Shown here: piece by piece, positions 1,426-10,902 of the stretch | How positions within the stretch are numbered: the first letter of the stretch is position 1 | Layout: every line of letters starts with the position of its first letter | Virus record (IMG/VR): IMGVR_UViG_2531839668_000016 | Reading direction: 5' to 3' (one strand) | From: a virus | Lineage: Duplodnaviria > Heunggongvirae > Uroviricota > Caudoviricetes | Length of the DNA stretch: 10,902 nt | Notes under the pieces: generated by a model | What the model saw: the letters and a program-made list of their open reading frames with translations, nothing else | What the model was told of the DNA's origin: nothing | Database searches by the model: none | Position numbers and translations under genes: made by a program

Positions 1426-1481
1426 TGGGCTTCATATAAATATGCTCGATATGCTATTAATAATATCCACATAAATAAAAC

Positions 1482-1504
1482 AACGGGCGTGTTATACGCC
1501 CGTT
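1482..1504 (-). terminator. Rho-independent terminator of icd (perfect 9-bp stem AACGGGCGT / ACGCCCGTT, 5-nt loop), possibly bidirectional for iraM
   Basis: Perfect inverted repeat seen directly. On the minus strand it is followed by GTTTTATTTATG. It lies 24 bp downstream of the icd-fragment stop codon, between the convergent iraM and icd fragment. Confidence 0.5.
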
Positions 1505-1527
1505 TCAATATTTAACACATGGAGAGA

Positions 1528-1692
1528 TTACATGTTTTCGATGATCGCTTCACCAAACTCTGAACATTTCAGCAGCTTAGCGCCTTCCATCAGACGTTCG
1601 AAGTCATAAGTTACGGTCTTGGCATTGATTGCGCCTTCCATACCTTTAACAATCAGGTCAGCCGCTTCAGTCCAACCCATATGGCGCAGCAG
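1528..1692 (-). pseudogene. icd: 3' fragment of isocitrate dehydrogenase gene (icdC-like); att core duplication of an icd-integrating prophage
   Basis: Minus-strand translation reads [54 protein letters not shown], which is the Icd C-terminus. There is no upstream coding continuation, and homology ends near 1692. Confidence 0.85.
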
Positions 1693-1955: not shown

Positions 1956-2036
1956 TTAAAAATAAGATAACGATGCCGCCAAGCAGTGCAAAACCTTGTT
2001 TACTCCACGACTGTCTGCCCCATTATCTGCATACAT
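1956..2036 (-). CDS. Small ORF (26 aa, MYADNGADSRGVNKVLHCLAASLSYF) with a strong Shine-Dalgarno
   Basis: GGAGGA at 2043-2048 on the minus strand, 6 nt upstream of the ATG at 2036. No recognisable family. Confidence 0.2.
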   Translation of the reverse strand: MYADNGADSRGVNKVLHCLAASLSYF

Positions 2037-2427
2037 AATTATCCTCCATAACTGAGATAAATGTCGGTTATGAGCGAACAACAGACGTTTAGTTTATGAT
2101 GGCTGTGTCTATACATTAAACATAACATCCATTACCGGCACCGCTTATTAATTGCTATCTGATATTGTCACTAAAAAAATAGGCATTCCCCGATATAATA
2201 ATCACAAAGAAGCTTTTGGTGCTGGCAATCGGTATACCTCATAGTGGACTGCGACTTTCCGGGCACGACAAGGATATATCAATGTATGAGCAGGAAAATT
2301 AGACCGTGGTGCGTCATATGATGACTAAGCACGGATAACAGCTACTTAATTGAAACTATTGATTATATTACAGCCAGTGCCTTATAGGATGGTTAGTCAT
2401 CAACCGCGACTCCTGCACAATCATGGG

Positions 2428-3513
2428 CTATTGCCAGCAATTGTTTTTAATTGCTTTAGCATCTACCGTCATATCTACTGTAGCAAAATGGATCTTATGT
2501 CCCTGAGTGACAACATACTCATTAAGCATATAGCCAACAGCTGGATGAAGTAGAAGACCAGCGGCATTGAGCGAAAGCGGATCCGTCTTGTTCTCCTGTG
2601 TTCTAAGGTAGGTATATAGCTGATAAATATAGCCATTACGTAGTGATTGCTCCCGATGCCAACCCTTTGTCAGAATCGAATTAAATTTGGTATCGATAAT
2701 AATACGCCGCTGGGCAGTCTTGTGTTCCAGAATAATGTCTGACTTCATTGTCGGGAAAATCTCTGCACTACCTGCACTTTGATCGCTCAACGCCCATTTC
2801 AGCTCTTTCCCTGCAGAGACCTGCCAAGTTGTTTTGGCAAGGTGTACACGATATAAGCCAGCGATACCTTTTTCAAATAGTCTTCTCATCCAGTAAAGGT
2901 TATTTGAGGGCGCAGGTAAAAGATATTGGCCTTGATCTTCGGTCGGCATCAGCAGTTCAAAAGCTAATCGTGCGGCATCGACCATCGGTTTATCTGCGGC
3001 ATCATGGCGTCCAAAACGCCACACTGAGGGTAATTCGCGGGGGGCAGGATATCCTCCATTTATCCCCTCACGGCGAAGTGATATTGCCATAAAATGGCAA
3101 TCTGCCGCCAAAGACGGTTTCACTATGATTGAGGCCAGACGTTCTAACGCACAGCGAACATAGCGATTTCGGGGGGTGTTGAGGGTTATGTCTTGAAAAT
3201 GGCAGGCAACCTGTCCCCGTTCCAGCAGTTGATGACTGGCAGTATACAGTATGTCAATGCGCCCTCTCACCCGGTTCAGGGCCGCATGACAAGTTTGGTA
3301 TCCCATATTTAAATTGCGACGTCGGCGCAGCGTAATCTCATGAAGGAGGATTGTCGCCACCAGGTCGGGGATTTCTGCTGGGTTATCTTCTACTGCGATC
3401 TGATTGCGCCCTAACTGGCGAAACAGATCTGAAGCGTACAGCATCAGCATCCAGATATTTCGCATGGGAATACGTGATGCTGTATGTTGCTCACTCCCGG
3501 TTATTGTCGTCAT
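2428..3513 (-). CDS. McrC-like nuclease subunit of a McrBC-type (type IV, modification-dependent) restriction system
   Basis: 361 aa. Its ATG overlaps the stop of the upstream McrB-like gene (ATGA at 3510-3513). Size is similar to McrC (348 aa), and the C-terminal region has a PD-(D/E)xK-like stretch (DIILEHK...IIIDTKF). Confidence 0.65.
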   Translation of the reverse strand: MTTITGSEQHTASRIPMRNIWMLMLYASDLFRQLGRNQIAVEDNPAEIPDLVATILLHEITLRRRRNLNMGYQTCHAALNRVRGRIDILYTASHQLLERGQVACHFQDITLNTPRNRYVRCALERLASIIVKPSLAADCHFMAISLRREGINGGYPAPRELPSVWRFGRHDAADKPMVDAARLAFELLMPTEDQGQYLLPAPSNNLYWMRRLFEKGIAGLYRVHLAKTTWQVSAGKELKWALSDQSAGSAEIFPTMKSDIILEHKTAQRRIIIDTKFNSILTKGWHREQSLRNGYIYQLYTYLRTQENKTDPLSLNAAGLLLHPAVGYMLNEYVVTQGHKIHFATVDMTVDAKAIKNNCWQ

Positions 3514-5492
3514 TTTGCTAATAACACTTTTCTGGCTTCATCGACTTTATTTGGAGCATCGAACCAATATTCGGCGAGCAAAGGGCAGATCTCTGTATCA
3601 ACGACTTGTTCATACCAAGCCTGGGCATCGTTGATTTTTTGGCCGATAGCTGGGGTGACATAGCTGTGACCGATACAAAACTGTGGTCCTAAGGTAACAT
3701 CTTTTGCCAGCATATCGTTTAATACCGTCAGTCGAGATTTGATGAATGCTAACATGTCAAAATCAATTGCGTAATTATAATTTACCCAGTTTCTCCACGC
3801 GTCATTAAAAGCTGGCTTTAGATCGATAAACGCGAAACGACGGCGCAGCGCTAGGTCAAGTAGTGCGAGTGAGCGGTCTGCAATATTCATCGTACCGATG
3901 ATATATAGATTCTCAGGAATGTATATTTTTTCATCAGCATTTTTAGGATAGGAAAGAGATAATGCCTCAGTCGGCGTGCGTTTATCTGCTTCCATCAACG
4001 TGAGTGTTTCACCGAAGATTTGCGCCGGATTGCCACGATTAATCTCTTCAATTATCACCACATATTTCGAGGTAGGATTATTGACTGCAGTTTTGATTGC
4101 ATTTACAAAAGGTCCATCAATTAGCGTCAATTGCCCTTCTTTACCTGGACGCCAGCCTCGAATAAAGTCTTCGTAAGAGAGGTTCGGGTGAAATTGCACC
4201 GCGCTAATACGCTCAGGTGCTTTTTCTCCCATCAAGCAGTACGCCAGACGTCGCGCTAACCAAGTTTTTCCAGTTCCGGGTGGTCCTTGTAATATCAGGT
4301 TTTTCTTGTCGATCAGGCGCTGAAGTGTGAGTTGGATCTTAGCCTCTTCCAAGAAACAGCCATCCTGCACCAGATGACTGATGTCATAAGGAACGTGGGT
4401 GAGTTTTGGCAACAGCGCACTCTCTTCGACAGTTTCCTCAGTTATCGTCTGGGATTCGTTTTTCTCAAAATTCAGGTATTCATAATTTCCGGACTCGAGG
4501 GACTTTAACTCATCATCATTGCATAGTTTCTGTAGATAAAAGTAGATTGAGCTTGTAACAGTTTTGCTCTCAGGATGCTCTACCTTGAATACGTCCAAGT
4601 AGTTTTCTTCCAACTCCGAAGCAGTGAAATAAGGGCCATTTTTTTTCAGGCATAACGCCTTAATTTTATTCAGTAAAGAGGCTTTCCACGTTCTATTTGC
4701 CACCTCATCTTTAGACTGGCTAAGATCTGTATTCCACGCTGATAAGGAAAGTTCTGGGAAAGAATGAACCGGATAGTTTGGTTGGGTAAAGACCTCGTTC
4801 AGCGCCCGCATAAGACTCAGGTAACTTTGTCCACTACAGCGACCTTTTGCCCCGTTTTTAATGATCTTAATGTTTAACACTGTCTGAATGTAATACTGCG
4901 ACTGGCTATCTAAAGTGGGGTAGAACCAAGGACGGGTCCAGTACAACCCCATGGTGAGATTCCAACCGACATTCATTACTGTAGAAGCGATGTCATATGC
5001 GGCAGTGAAGTCTGCAGAGTTAGTATTCTGGTTATCCGCAAAGATCATTGCCTGTGAGAACATTTCCCACAAGCATTCAATGTCATTAGGGTCGCGTGAC
5101 TTTTCATAACCAAAGAACCAAGATTTTTGGTTATTCAACAGAGGGATTCCGGCAAAGGAGTCAGGAATCGGTTCGTTCACGCCCAACAAATTCGCTAGCT
5201 TGGCAGCAATAATTTTGCGATTGCTGTCGGTCAAGTTACGATTGAACAAGCCCATAGTAGTAAACGGACAAATGTCTTTTAAGGGAAAGATCTCTCCCAT
5301 AATAGATTTGTCCTGCAGATGGGACATTCCTTCCACACCCGAGGCAATTAGATGAATACCTTTGACTAATTCATCTCTACGATTTCGCCAAGTCAGTAAC
5401 GCGTTGGCAAAAGCCTCATAAAAACTAGCCCAAGCAAACTTGCCATCATGTTCTGCTGTATCCACGGGAACTCCATTATACTTGTTGAGCAA
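3510..5492 (-). CDS. McrB-family AAA+ GTPase with a large uncharacterised N-terminal domain (~390 aa)
   Basis: Walker A GPPGTGKT at aa 403-410 (nt 4263-4286). VVIIEEINRGN...FGETLTLMEADKR and the IIGTMNIADRSLALLDLALRRRFAFIDL block closely parallel E. coli McrB (FIIDEINRAN..., MNTADRSLAVVDYALRRRF). The N-terminal 390 aa are unrelated to the E. coli McrB DNA-binding domain. The annotated start is TTG; an in-frame GTG 9 codons downstream has a better SD. Confidence 0.8.
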   Translation of the reverse strand: MLNKYNGVPVDTAEHDGKFAWASFYEAFANALLTWRNRRDELVKGIHLIASGVEGMSHLQDKSIMGEIFPLKDICPFTTMGLFNRNLTDSNRKIIAAKLANLLGVNEPIPDSFAGIPLLNNQKSWFFGYEKSRDPNDIECLWEMFSQAMIFADNQNTNSADFTAAYDIASTVMNVGWNLTMGLYWTRPWFYPTLDSQSQYYIQTVLNIKIIKNGAKGRCSGQSYLSLMRALNEVFTQPNYPVHSFPELSLSAWNTDLSQSKDEVANRTWKASLLNKIKALCLKKNGPYFTASELEENYLDVFKVEHPESKTVTSSIYFYLQKLCNDDELKSLESGNYEYLNFEKNESQTITEETVEESALLPKLTHVPYDISHLVQDGCFLEEAKIQLTLQRLIDKKNLILQGPPGTGKTWLARRLAYCLMGEKAPERISAVQFHPNLSYEDFIRGWRPGKEGQLTLIDGPFVNAIKTAVNNPTSKYVVIIEEINRGNPAQIFGETLTLMEADKRTPTEALSLSYPKNADEKIYIPENLYIIGTMNIADRSLALLDLALRRRFAFIDLKPAFNDAWRNWVNYNYAIDFDMLAFIKSRLTVLNDMLAKDVTLGPQFCIGHSYVTPAIGQKINDAQAWYEQVVDTEICPLLAEYWFDAPNKVDEARKVLLAK

Positions 5493-5825
5493 TGATAATT
5501 TATCTGTGTGAGTTTTAACATATTACTATCAGTTATAGAAAAATTTAACTATCCGATACAGAGAGCGGAATGCTGAATTTGACCTGACTTGCTTCCAACC
5601 AATTAAAATCAACTTATTTATCAATTGGTTATTTTGGCACATGGCGGTCATCAAGGCAATATCGCGTTGTCATAAGGTGTCGAGGCTCGGAGGTTCAAAT
5701 CCTCTCATACAAAAAATAAATAAAATTAATGACGGTTGGAAATTATTCAATACACTCTCGAAAGTACATCAGCCAACCGCAGCACGTTATTGCATATAAC
5801 GTTTCTGCGGCATATCACAAAACTA

Positions 5826-6409
5826 TTATTCCATAACAGGGATTGCAGGCCACTCAATATCAGGTGCAGTTGATGTATCAACACGATTCAGCAACACCCG
5901 ATACTTCTTCCAGGCTTCAAGCAACGAGGTTTCTTCCTCCGTTGCGATTTCCAGATCTGCAGCATCCTGAAGCGGGGCAATATGCTCACTGGCTACCTGC
6001 ATCAGGCTGTTTTTGTTTCTTCCGCCTCCCGGATCCGGAACAGTTTTTCTGCTTCCGTATCCTTCACCCAGGCTGTGCCGTTCCACTTCTGAAACTCCCC
6101 TTCCGGGGATAACCAGGTGATATTTTCCGGTAGAGGTCCGAGTTCAGAAATAAATAACGAGTCGCCGGAAGCCACGTCATAGACGGTTTTTCCCCGATGA
6201 TCTTCAACGAGATGCCACGATGCCTCATCACTGTTGAAAACAGCCACGAAGCCTACCGGAATATCTGGCGGTGCAATATAGGTACTGTTTGCTGGCAGAC
6301 CTGTATGAGGCGGAATATATGCGTCACCTTCACCAATAAATTCATTAGTTCCGGCCAGCAGATTATAAATTTTTATGGTCCGTGGTTGTTCACTCATTCT
6401 GAATGCCAT
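5826..6409 (-). pseudogene. tfa: Tail fibre assembly protein (Tfa, lambda/e14 TfaE-like), frameshifted
   Basis: Two overlapping ORFs in different frames (6002-6409 and 5826-6086) together give [15 protein letters not shown]...REAEETK / [22 protein letters not shown]...[10 protein letters not shown], i.e. a full Tfa. The frame break is in an A-run at 6008-6017. Confidence 0.8.
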
Positions 6410-7519: not shown

Positions 7520-7674
7520 CGCATCCTCACGATAATATCCGGGTAGGCGCGATCACTTTCGTCTACTCCATTACAAAGCGAGGCTGGGTATTTCCCGGCC
7601 TTTCTGTTATCAGAAATCCACTGAAAGCACAGCGGCTGGCTGAGAAGATAAATAACAAACAGGAGGATATATGA
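7516..7674 (+). CDS. Small ORF (52 aa, [52 protein letters not shown]), coupled on both sides
   Basis: Its ATG overlaps the exo stop (ATGA at 7516-7519), and its TGA overlaps the ATG of the DGQHR gene (ATGA at 7671-7674). Positionally it corresponds to the small orfs following exo in lambda. Confidence 0.5.
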
Positions 7675-8735
7675 GTCAGGTTGGTAATCATTCATTCGAA
7701 TTTCCGGCATCGCAAGGTGTACAGGGTGGTACTGTTACACTCTTCCTTACCATACCAGGAAGATCGCTGGCTCGTTTCCTCGCTTCAGATAATTACGGCC
7801 ATACACTGGAACGCTCTCAGCGAGAAATTAATCCAAATCGAGTACGAAAATTTTTAAATTATCTCACTAACGCAGACTCAAGAAATGAGCCTTTTATCAT
7901 TCCCCCTCTCGTAGGTAACTGTGATTCGAATATAGAATTTGTACCGTTTGGCAACACAAATGTTGGTATAGCCAGAATTCCCCTCGACGCCGAAATAAAA
8001 CTTTTTGATGGTCAACATCGTGCAGCTGGCATTGAGATATTTTGCCGAAGTTCCCCATCAACGCTCATGGTTCCCATGATGCTTACAATGAATCTGCCGC
8101 TAAAAACCCGGCAGCAGTTCTTTTCGGACATAAATAACAACGTTTCTAAGCCATCAGCGACCATCAATATGGCGTATAACGGCCGGGATGATATTGCTCA
8201 GGGAATGATATCCTTCCTGACCCAACATACTGTATTTGCCGATATAACCGATTTTGAACACAACGTAGTGCCATTAAAAAGTAATATGTGGGTGAGTTTC
8301 AAGGCACTCACTGATGCAACGTCAAAGTTCGCTAGGAACGGCAATCAACAACTTGAAATGGGATATATAGAATCTGTCTGGGAGGCATGGATTACACTAA
8401 CTCAGATTGACTCAATCCGACATGGTGTACACCACGCTACGTACAAGCGCGATTATATTCAGTTCCATGGAGTAATGATTAACGCTTTCGGTTTTGCGGT
8501 TCAACAGATGATGGTTAATCATTCCATCGCAGAAATAACTTCTATGATCGAAAAACTATGTGCAACTACCAGCTCTGCAGAAAGAGAGGATTTTTTTCTG
8601 ATGGATAACTGGGCGGGGATCTGCACGAAAGCCAGCCAGGAAAAACTATCTGTTATTGCCAATGTGGCAGCGCAGAAAGCAGCAGCAAACAGACTGATAC
8701 AAGCTTTTACCAAAGGAAGTCTGGAAACAACTTAA
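7671..8735 (+). CDS. DGQHR-domain protein (DndB-like, ParB/Srx-like fold)
   Basis: 354 aa with an exact DGQHR motif (KLFDGQHRAAGIE, aa 113-117, nt 8007-8021). SD CAGGAGGA lies upstream, and the gene is translationally coupled to the preceding small ORF. Confidence 0.75.
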   Translation: MSQVGNHSFEFPASQGVQGGTVTLFLTIPGRSLARFLASDNYGHTLERSQREINPNRVRKFLNYLTNADSRNEPFIIPPLVGNCDSNIEFVPFGNTNVGIARIPLDAEIKLFDGQHRAAGIEIFCRSSPSTLMVPMMLTMNLPLKTRQQFFSDINNNVSKPSATINMAYNGRDDIAQGMISFLTQHTVFADITDFEHNVVPLKSNMWVSFKALTDATSKFARNGNQQLEMGYIESVWEAWITLTQIDSIRHGVHHATYKRDYIQFHGVMINAFGFAVQQMMVNHSIAEITSMIEKLCATTSSAEREDFFLMDNWAGICTKASQEKLSVIANVAAQKAAANRLIQAFTKGSLETT

Positions 8736-9533: not shown

Positions 9534-9770
9534 ATGTCTCGACTAATCACTTTACAGGACTGGGCTAAAGAAGAATTTGGGGACTTAGCACCAAGTGAGC
9601 GAGTTCTGAAAAAATACGCGCAAGGGAAAATGATGGCCCCACCCGCTATAAAAGTTGGTCGCTACTGGATGATTGACCGAAATTCCCGTTTTGTAGGAAC
9701 GCTTGCAGAACCGCAACTCCCAATAAACGCAAACCCAAAACTCCAACGGATAATCGCTGATGGCTGCTAG
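9534..9770 (+). CDS. xis: Excisionase (Xis-like recombination directionality factor)
   Basis: 78 aa with strong SD AAGAGGAGGA. It sits immediately upstream of int and overlaps it by 11 nt. The N-terminal LITLQDWA...PPAIKVGRYW resembles lambda Xis (YLTLQEW...PPPVKDGREY). Confidence 0.65.
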   Translation: MSRLITLQDWAKEEFGDLAPSERVLKKYAQGKMMAPPAIKVGRYWMIDRNSRFVGTLAEPQLPINANPKLQRIIADGC

Positions 9771-10902
9771 ACCCCGATCTCACAAAATCTCTATACCCAA
9801 TTTATATTGCAAATTAGATAAGCGAACCGGAAAGGTATATTGGCAATACAAACATCCACTATCCGGTCGTTTTCATAGCTTAGGAACTGATGAGAATGAA
9901 GCAAAACAAGTTGCTACTGAAGCAAATACCATTATTGCTGAACAACGTACCAGACAAATATTAAGCGTCAATGAGCGTCTGGAAAGAATGAAAGGCAGGC
10001 GCTCAGACATTACGGTGACAGAATGGCTTGATAAATATATTTCTATCCAGGAGGACAGGCTGCAACATAATGAACTAAGACCCAACTCCTATCGGCAAAA
10101 AGGCAAACCCATTCGTCTTTTCCGTGAGCATTGTGGAATGCAACACCTCAAGGATATTACCGCACTTGATATTGCCGAAATAATTGATGCTGTAAAGGCT
10201 GAAGGTCATAACAGGATGGCGCAAGTCGTGAGAATGGTGTTGATCGACGTCTTCAAAGAAGCACAACACGCAGGACATGTTCCGCCAGGATTTAACCCTG
10301 CGCAGGCAACAAAACAACCGCGAAATCGAGTAAACCGCCAAAGATTGTCACTGCTCGAATGGCAGGCAATATTTGAAAGCGTAAGCAGACGGCAGCCCTA
10401 TTTAAAATGCGGCATGCTACTTGCTCTTGTTACTGGACAACGTTTAGGCGATATCTGCAATTTGAAATTCTCTGATATATGGGACGACATGTTGCACATT
10501 ACTCAGGAAAAAACCGGTTCAAAACTTGCTATTCCGCTTAACCTGAAATGCGATGCTCTGAATATTACCCTTCGTGAAGTTATATCTCAGTGCAGGGATG
10601 CTGTTGTTAGTAAATATCTGGTCCATTACCGTCACACTACCTCTCAAGCAAACAGAGGAGACCAGGTTTCTGCAAATACTCTGACAACGGCTTTTAAAAA
10701 GGCCCGGGAAAAATGTGGCATAAAATGGGAGCAAGGAACTGCGCCCACATTTCATGAGCAGCGATCTCTCTCAGAACGGTTATATCGGGAACAGGGTCTG
10801 GATACGCAAAAGTTGTTAGGCCATAAATCCAGAAAAATGACCGACCGATACAATGATGATCGTGGTAAAGACTGGATTATCGTAGATATCAAAACAGCAT
10901 AG
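9760..10902 (+). CDS. int: Lambda-family tyrosine integrase
   Basis: 380 aa. N-terminus MAARPRSHKISIPNLY resembles lambda Int MGRRRSHERRDLPPNLY. C-terminal catalytic region has GQRLGD, HEQRSLSERLY, LGHKS and RYNDDRGKDW, paralleling lambda HELRSLSARLY...LGHKS...YRDDRGREW. Confidence 0.9.
   Translation: MAARPRSHKISIPNLYCKLDKRTGKVYWQYKHPLSGRFHSLGTDENEAKQVATEANTIIAEQRTRQILSVNERLERMKGRRSDITVTEWLDKYISIQEDRLQHNELRPNSYRQKGKPIRLFREHCGMQHLKDITALDIAEIIDAVKAEGHNRMAQVVRMVLIDVFKEAQHAGHVPPGFNPAQATKQPRNRVNRQRLSLLEWQAIFESVSRRQPYLKCGMLLALVTGQRLGDICNLKFSDIWDDMLHITQEKTGSKLAIPLNLKCDALNITLREVISQCRDAVVSKYLVHYRHTTSQANRGDQVSANTLTTAFKKAREKCGIKWEQGTAPTFHEQRSLSERLYREQGLDTQKLLGHKSRKMTDRYNDDRGKDWIIVDIKTA

Follow-up and report, generated by a model that had tools for sequence, protein, structure and literature searches.

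A McrBC-like module with an N-terminal DUF8425 domain and a DpnI-type winged helix in the cargo slot of a prophage remnant at icd

For the locus studied here, we take ring assembly, McrC-stimulated GTP hydrolysis, translocation and cleavage, the steps of a working McrBC system, from the McrBC enzymes of E. coli and T. gammatolerans (PMC6624300, PMC7680126). Two further groups come close in design. Helbrecht et al. (2024) list proteins that join an N-terminal domain, a winged helix and an NTPase and have a McrC partner (NTD-wH-NTPase/McrC) as uncharacterised putative Type IV systems, one of which failed in purification (PMC11037411). In the END nucleases, diverse hypermodified bases are sensed by an inactivated EndoIII/OGG domain, and Yee et al. 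(2025) report fusions of this sensor with McrB-like GTPases as well (PMC12191111). We use profile searches, structure prediction and genome comparison to study a two-gene McrBC-like module in a 10,902-nucleotide (nt) stretch of Caudoviricetes DNA (IMG/VR record IMGVR_UViG_2531839668_000016; this whole stretch is called the window below), where it sits near one end of a decayed prophage remnant. From its domains and intact motifs, we consider it probable that the module is a modification-dependent McrBC restriction system in which an N-terminal DUF8425 domain and a winged helix bind the target DNA.

The module is made up of two open reading frames (ORFs) on the minus strand, at 3510-5492 (660 amino acids (aa) when read from a TTG) and at 2428-3513 (361 aa), and the stop of the mcrB-like gene and the start of mcrC overlap as ATGA at 3510-3513. 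A preliminary description of this DNA, made from its letters alone, had given proteins of 660 and 361 aa; the ORFs are where it placed them, but the first protein is probably shorter, and the 361 aa of the second reflect a deletion in the window. For the McrB-like protein, the true start is probably GTG 5465, giving 651 aa, because a GGAG lies 5 nt 5' of this codon, the RefSeq product has 651 aa (WP_000379040) and this length fits most homologues (the representative of its 90% cluster, which has 1100 member sequences, is also 651 aa long). Intact McrC has 373 aa, as we discuss below. The order mcrB then mcrC recurs in Enterobacter, in a metagenomic bacterium and on plasmid MP1 of D. radiodurans, and the ATGA overlap is kept in the Enterobacter homologue. 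In E. coli, the pair is labelled "AAA family ATPase" and McrC. The genes and their catalytic features lie as follows:

3510..5465, minus strand: gene of the McrB-like GTPase; the probable start GTG 5465 gives 651 aa (the ORF reaches TTG 5492, 660 aa)
2428..3513, minus strand: mcrC, encoding the nuclease partner (PD...DxK); overlaps the stop of the mcrB-like gene with its ATG and is frameshifted at its 3' end in the window
3531..4361, minus strand: McrB AAA+ GTPase core and lid, from AAA_5, NCBIfam and PDB matches and motifs
4263-4286, minus strand: Walker A, GPPGTGKT
4029-4055, minus strand: Walker B-like, IIEEINR
3870-3890, minus strand: NxxD signature, MNIADRS
2737-2748, minus strand: D259 of McrC, from alignment to E. 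coli McrC
2686-2697, minus strand: D274-T-K276 of McrC, from alignment to E. coli McrC

The McrB-like protein matches Pfam AAA_5 with E = 8e-27 and the AAA+ core of E. coli McrB in the PDB with 261 bits, and McrB_lid (PF28529) is annotated on its homologues. In the 660-aa numbering, its motifs are GPPGTGKT at 403-410, IIEEINRGN at 480-488, MNIADRS at 535-541 and RRRF at 550-553. The McrB-family GTPase core that the preliminary description had recognised is therefore found with its motifs in place, including the Walker A lysine K409 (K400 in the 651-aa numbering). Its second call, a coupled mcrBC-like partner with a D-x-K, holds as well: the mcrC product matches Pfam McrBC with E = 4.5e-21, lies above the NCBIfam cut-off for McrC equivalogs (346.8 vs 338 bits) and, when aligned with E. 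coli McrC, retains the catalytic D...DxK (PTMKSD259 and ID274-T-K276). With PADLOC, only generic AAA matches are returned for the McrB-like protein and none for McrC. We also considered a CoCoNuT-type RNA-targeting system, which is ruled out by the NxxD signature (in place of NxD), by a McrC with an active-type PD-DxK site and by the absence of coiled coils. Judged by sequence, the two genes are a McrBC-type restriction module.

Does such a module have to depend on modification? Sequence-specific McrBC relatives that need a protective methyltransferase do exist, namely LlaJI, LlaI and BsuMI (PMC1459862), and a modification-independent enzyme of this kind would be one alternative. However, we find no methyltransferase gene in the window, nor in the flanks of the module in E. 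coli or Enterobacter; the module has two genes and not three; and an enzyme of this kind would be toxic to its own host if left unprotected. This alternative is thus hardly credible, and the same absence of a methyltransferase from the window, together with intact GTPase and nuclease motifs and a coupled McrC, speaks for dependence on modification.

It is in the N-terminal region that the protein departs from E. coli McrB. The NCBIfam McrB model covers residues 378-654 only (model positions 176-452), at 262 bits against a cut-off of 637, and a Pfam scan of residues 1-393 at E <= 10 gives no match, both of which agree with the earlier observation that the N-terminus is unlike the E. coli McrB DNA reader. 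The silence of Pfam follows from the release that was scanned, which is older than PF28527 and its companion models. A search with residues 1-378 returns 306 proteins, whose precomputed Pfam domains are PF28527 (DUF8425), PF28529 (McrB_lid) and, in some, PF17726 (DpnI_C). An AlphaFold model of residues 1-390 (predicted local distance difference test, pLDDT, 87.9; predicted template modelling score, pTM, 0.80) is made up of a helical domain (~10-258), a winged helix (~261-340) and a disordered acidic linker. The ~390 residues were at first called unassignable, with profile and structure-prediction searches proposed as the way to examine them; these searches resolve them into DUF8425 and a DpnI_C-type winged helix:

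4719..5465, minus strand: Pfam DUF8425 (PF28527), a largely helical domain and candidate base sensor, residues ~10-258
4458..4691, minus strand: DpnI_C-type winged-helix domain, residues ~268-345; profile match to DpnI
4362..4457, minus strand: acidic low-confidence linker, residues ~346-377, with pLDDT <50 at residues 348-362

Because this N-terminus is unlike the reader of K-12 McrB, a specificity that differs from that of EcoKMcrBC is likely. The suggestion of a new specificity in the preliminary description fits with this, and the N-terminus is not near-identical to any studied reader domain.

DUF8425 belongs to a large family. An exhaustive profile search finds at least 2340 representatives at 50% identity, across phyla, 774 of them below 1e-30, and the architecture counts that we give from here on (148, 105 and 43%) refer to the best 150 of these 2340. 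AAA_5 is present in all nine of the largest matches scanned and in 63 of 71 in a wider sample, and a short spacer joins DUF8425 to the GTPase in 80 of the 105 top representatives that have a Walker A motif. Some top representatives have two copies of DUF8425. The DpnI-type winged helix occurs in just 3 of 148, so that the architecture found in E. coli is one of the less common forms within a large clade of McrB proteins, in which DUF8425 is the constant N-terminal module. Fusions of the END type, to phospholipase D (PLD) or NucS nucleases, are not reached by sequence among the DUF8425 matches listed. Many homologues from other phyla have an extra, conserved N-terminal domain of ~160 aa (for example residues 1-160 of P0028) with the motif ...VSVMAIKAIG...REWYF.T....WRV.PGDW...; Pfam gives no match on this 160-aa extension, which may be a further reader domain. 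On a plasmid of Bacteroides finegoldii (locus 1977-3461), the N-terminal ~190 residues of DUF8425, or two-thirds of it, are fused to an FRG domain in place of a McrB GTPase (28.9% identity), and since such FRG fusions occur on Bacteroidales plasmids, DUF8425 is not exclusive to McrBC systems.

Now we consider the winged helix. A profile made from ten homologues matches DpnI residues 188-257 with E = 2e-12. In DpnI, the winged helix binds fully methylated Gm6ATC and holds the two methyls in pockets formed by E228, K229, R231 and Q232 (PMC3424567). After allowing for the offset of three residues between the numbering of the PDB chain and the published one, the window protein has S, S, Y and F at these four sites (HPESKTVTSSIYFYLQKL vs VKNNHIKEKIRQQLQIL); the profile consensus of the winged-helix-bearing homologues has s, t, s and r there, and deeper relatives have s, t, s/a/n and r. 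On this alignment we do not expect the module's winged helix to recognise Gm6ATC, and a lost pocket is what one would expect of a nuclease system carried in Dam+ enterobacteria. Among winged-helix fusions in general, only ~10% retain the GATC/6mA motif (6mA, N6-methyladenine; PMC11037411).

A loss of Gm6ATC recognition would still leave room for the winged helix to be the real reader, either of 6mA in a non-GATC context or of some other major-groove mark, with DUF8425 serving as a scaffold or regulator in, for example, ring assembly or autoinhibition. The homology to DpnI is solid, reading of 6mA by winged helices of the DpnI type is proven for several nuclease fusions (PMC11037411), and a highly conserved DUF8425 with varying companions is the opposite of a fast-evolving specificity domain. 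Yet every residue of the DpnI methyl pocket is replaced (PMC3424567), and with a winged helix in so few top representatives, most members of the family need another way to their targets. DUF8425 in turn has many invariant polar and aromatic residues, in the manner of a pocket. We regard a winged-helix reader as quite unlikely.

What, then, might DUF8425 do? When residues 10-258 are modelled alone, the model reaches pLDDT 93.4 and pTM 0.91. Independently of this model, Foldseek lists SsOgg (3fhg), hOGG1 and MutY, all of them weakly (E ~1-2). Along the sequence, an NVGW (GVG) hairpin lies between two helices; a loop rich in Pro (RPWFYP) comes after them, and the next helix opens with Asp195 (TLD195), which is nearly invariant (>=90% conserved). 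This order of helix-hairpin-helix, Pro loop and Asp resembles the HhH-GPD signature, and in a manual alignment, which has no statistical support, Asn178 falls at the place of the catalytic Lys120 of EndoIII. We propose tentatively, as a lead rather than a finding, that DUF8425 inspects bases and derives, with strong divergence, from OGG/EndoIII-like modules. In a bolder form of the idea, DUF8425 would be a highly diverged HhH-GPD (OGG-like) domain that makes a McrBC nuclease driven by GTP broadly sensitive to hypermodified bases of phages, much as if an END-like sensor had been placed on a motor nuclease. It may then even excise the base and thereby license cleavage, because the putative GPD Asp is conserved and the Lys position is Asn as in monofunctional glycosylases. 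We think this bolder form unlikely.

Putting these parts together, the modification-dependent system that we favour would work as follows. The 651-aa subunit would bind its target DNA through DUF8425 and the DpnI-type winged helix; by analogy with the characterised enzymes, its McrB-type AAA+ GTPase would form rings that McrC binds and stimulates, and GTP-driven translocation would be followed by cutting at the PD-DxK site of McrC. Judging from the biology of the host, the target would be a mark that Dam+/Dcm+ E. coli DNA lacks, and a modified base of phage DNA is the most plausible candidate. Nested within this is the less certain idea, on which we would not bet at even odds, that DUF8425 inspects bases as the hypermodification sensor does in END nucleases, in which case the winged helix would add affinity for duplex DNA and not recognition of Gm6ATC.

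Several observations pull the other way. The Walker B motif reads EE and not DE, and the window's own mcrC is truncated. For the N-terminus, in addition to the Pfam scan at E <= 10 described above, a PDB search with the DUF8425 family profile at E <= 10 gives no match, and hhalign against an EndoIII profile built from 3 sequences only gives probabilities of 0.2% (16-sequence DUF8425 profile) and 0.4% (257-sequence profile), which is why the hand alignment of GVGWN...PTLD to EndoIII GVGRK...AVD lacks statistical support. The glycines of the GVG hairpin are not conserved across the wider DUF8425 family. Furthermore, DUF8425 often stands beside other putative reader modules: an extra N-terminal domain of 120-200 aa, itself a putative reader, is present in ~43% of top representatives, and the winged helix is as rare as noted above. 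The identity of DUF8425 across phyla, ~50-58%, is high for a specificity domain. Its role may be a constant one, other than target choice, and its high conservation may fit either a broad-specificity sensor or a conserved role that has nothing to do with sensing.

The module is common. At >=99% identity it is present in 305 of 5426 complete E. coli genomes, always on the chromosome, and intact orthologues with 66-88% identity occur in Citrobacter, Salmonella, Pectobacterium and Enterobacter. The Enterobacter pair lies in an unrelated chromosomal context, which indicates that the module moves independently of the prophage, and a DUF8425-McrB and McrC pair is found on plasmid MP1 of D. radiodurans. 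A tblastn search of DUF8425 against 50,697 phage records gives no match. In Enterobacter hormaechei, a gene with a ScoMcrA-like phosphorothioate-binding domain and HNH (locus 17258-17953) lies ~6 kb from the DUF8425-wH-McrB/McrC pair, so that a few Type IV restriction genes may be clustered at this locus.

The window also has differences of its own. Compared with strain FORC 064, two homopolymer runs have each lost a single base:

2444..2448, no strand: homopolymer run of 5 instead of 6; 1-nt deletion private to the window, truncates McrC
5826..6409, minus strand: tfa, tail fibre assembly gene, split by a 1-nt homopolymer deletion near 6010; 36% identical to K-12 TfaE

The deletion at 2444-2448 changes the C-terminus of McrC from ...AIKKQLLAIAHDCAGVAVDD to ...AIKNNCWQ, with 4 residues in place of the last 16 and 361 instead of 373 aa in total; an intact allele would end near 2393, and in the alignment the missing tail pairs with the C-terminal end of E. 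coli McrC. A 71-nt query spanning the deletion has matches of 97-98.6% in each of the 305 carrier genomes but a perfect one (100%) in none, so the deletion is private to the window. The second contraction, at ~6009-6013 and likewise private, splits tfa. Single-base homopolymer contractions are a frequent type of sequencing error, and are expected of errors in long-read assembly; two of them in 9 kb look like assembly errors, with real slippage as the alternative.

These lesions raise the question of whether the locus has lost its function and is now an inert relic, a passive passenger of a decaying prophage. The prophage around it is in heavy decay, McrC is frameshifted and truncated and tfa is split in the window, and identity of >=99% among the 305 genomes leaves no power for a test of purifying selection. 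On the other hand, both window differences are of the error-prone homopolymer type, and the mcrC deletion is in none of the carriers. In two carrier genomes (FORC 064 and RM10410) both module genes are annotated as intact coding sequences next to phage genes that are pseudogenes, every catalytic motif is intact, and the orthologues in the four other genera are intact as well. That the module is a relic is very unlikely in our view, and a modification-dependent system remains the reading that we prefer.

We turn to the setting of the module, which involves two further features:

1477..1691, minus strand: fragment of icd (icd', icdC) with which the prophage remnant ends on the att side, 92.6% identical to the 3' end of the resident icd
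5669..5706, plus strand: 38-nt remnant like the 3' end of a tRNA-Pro, a little upstream of the gene for the McrB-like protein; 89.5% identical to annotated tRNA-Pro genes

Positions 1-1694 of the window (ycgX, iraM, icdC) are 99.7% identical to K-12, and this homology stops exactly at the annotated right end of the e14 prophage. Past the attachment (att) junction and icdC, blastn finds no similarity to K-12 e14, and the integrase (9760-10902) is 60% identical to IntE. Because the flank homology ends at the e14 boundary, no further e14 DNA similarity follows and the integrases share only that much, the element is, on sequence comparison, a lambdoid remnant distinct from e14 but with the same att site in icd. 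The remnant is badly decayed, with ~9 kb in the window, and a longer version in strain RM10410 is likewise full of pseudogenes. In K-12 e14, the stretch from the tail-fibre assembly genes to icdC holds pinE and mcrA; here the McrBC-like pair lies between tfa and the icd' att fragment, in that same slot. The icd' fragment and the comparison with e14 thus confirm the position proposed in the preliminary description, between tfa and the att core and in the place of pin and mcrA. Two unrelated Type IV restriction functions alternate at one prophage cargo site in different strains.

The tRNA-Pro-like remnant hints at an older history. ARAGORN and Rfam call no tRNA at 5669-5706, and the 101 nt around the remnant are found in 288 genomes; it could be the att scar of an earlier integration of the module, which would then once have been part of a tRNA-linked island. 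In FORC 064, an IS66-family element, ISCro1 (locus 8988-11603), lies between mcrC and the icd' fragment and is absent from the window (site 1932/1944). IS009 (Rfam RF02111) has a full-length match at 5869-6066 on the minus strand (207.8 bits, E = 3e-51), which overlaps tfa in its 3' part. A stand-alone DGQHR/DndB-like protein is encoded at 7671-8735 on the plus strand, within the early region of the remnant (Pfam DndB, E = 4e-46); its NCBIfam DGQHR score is 188.8 bits, well under the DndB equivalog cut-off, with no other dnd genes nearby. The gene has the same position in FORC 064 and RM10410 and could act in defence or anti-defence.

The finding is real, and it concerns a module that is common and already annotated: a catalogued DUF and a known type of winged helix in a published architecture class. 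In our literature search, no paper names DUF8425, describes the icd-linked module or reports a specificity for any member of the NTD-wH-NTPase/McrC class. About 1 in 18 complete E. coli genomes nevertheless carries the module, with its key subunit labelled only "AAA family ATPase". If its sensor reads phage hypermodifications, or methylation outside the range of McrA, McrBC and Mrr, strain-specific barriers to phage therapy and DNA transfer would be accounted for. A function would also be at hand for a Pfam DUF with thousands of members across phyla, and possibly a reagent for detecting modified DNA.

How does the module compare with the known systems? With EcoKMcrBC it shares the AAA+ GTPase core of McrB (261 bits, NxxD), a McrC with PD...DxK and the order mcrB-mcrC with overlapping stop and start. 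Unlike EcoKMcrBC, it lacks the DUF3578/ADAM 5-methylcytosine reader (~160 aa) and has DUF8425 and a winged helix (~370 aa) instead; the McrC proteins score 59.7 bits in direct comparison, the Walker B motif is EE vs DE, and the module lies in a prophage remnant at icd. Its winged helix is homologous in fold to the C-terminal domain of DpnI (PDB 4esj/4kyw), whereas all four pocket residues of that domain are replaced. To the NTD-wH-NTPase/McrC class (PMC11037411) it is alike in that an N-terminal domain, a DpnI-like winged helix and a McrB-like NTPase form one chain with a McrC-like partner; the N-terminal domain of that class, given without an accession in the text or supplements, may or may not be DUF8425, and the authors studied proteins that keep the GATC/6mA motif, which is absent from the window protein. 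With the END nucleases, it would share the principle that hypermodified bases are sensed by a domain with a glycosylase fold, a sensor already reported in fusion with McrB-like GTPases, but those enzymes are single-chain PLD or NucS-like nucleases, and their sensor can be recognised by HHpred, whereas DUF8425 has no profile-level similarity to EndoIII (3-sequence profile). Finally, EcoKMcrA of K-12 e14 is an unrelated protein, a single-chain HNH enzyme, and the two prophage backbones have no DNA similarity beyond the att junction; yet both are Type IV restriction functions, and both occupy the same cargo slot in prophages that have the same icd att junction.

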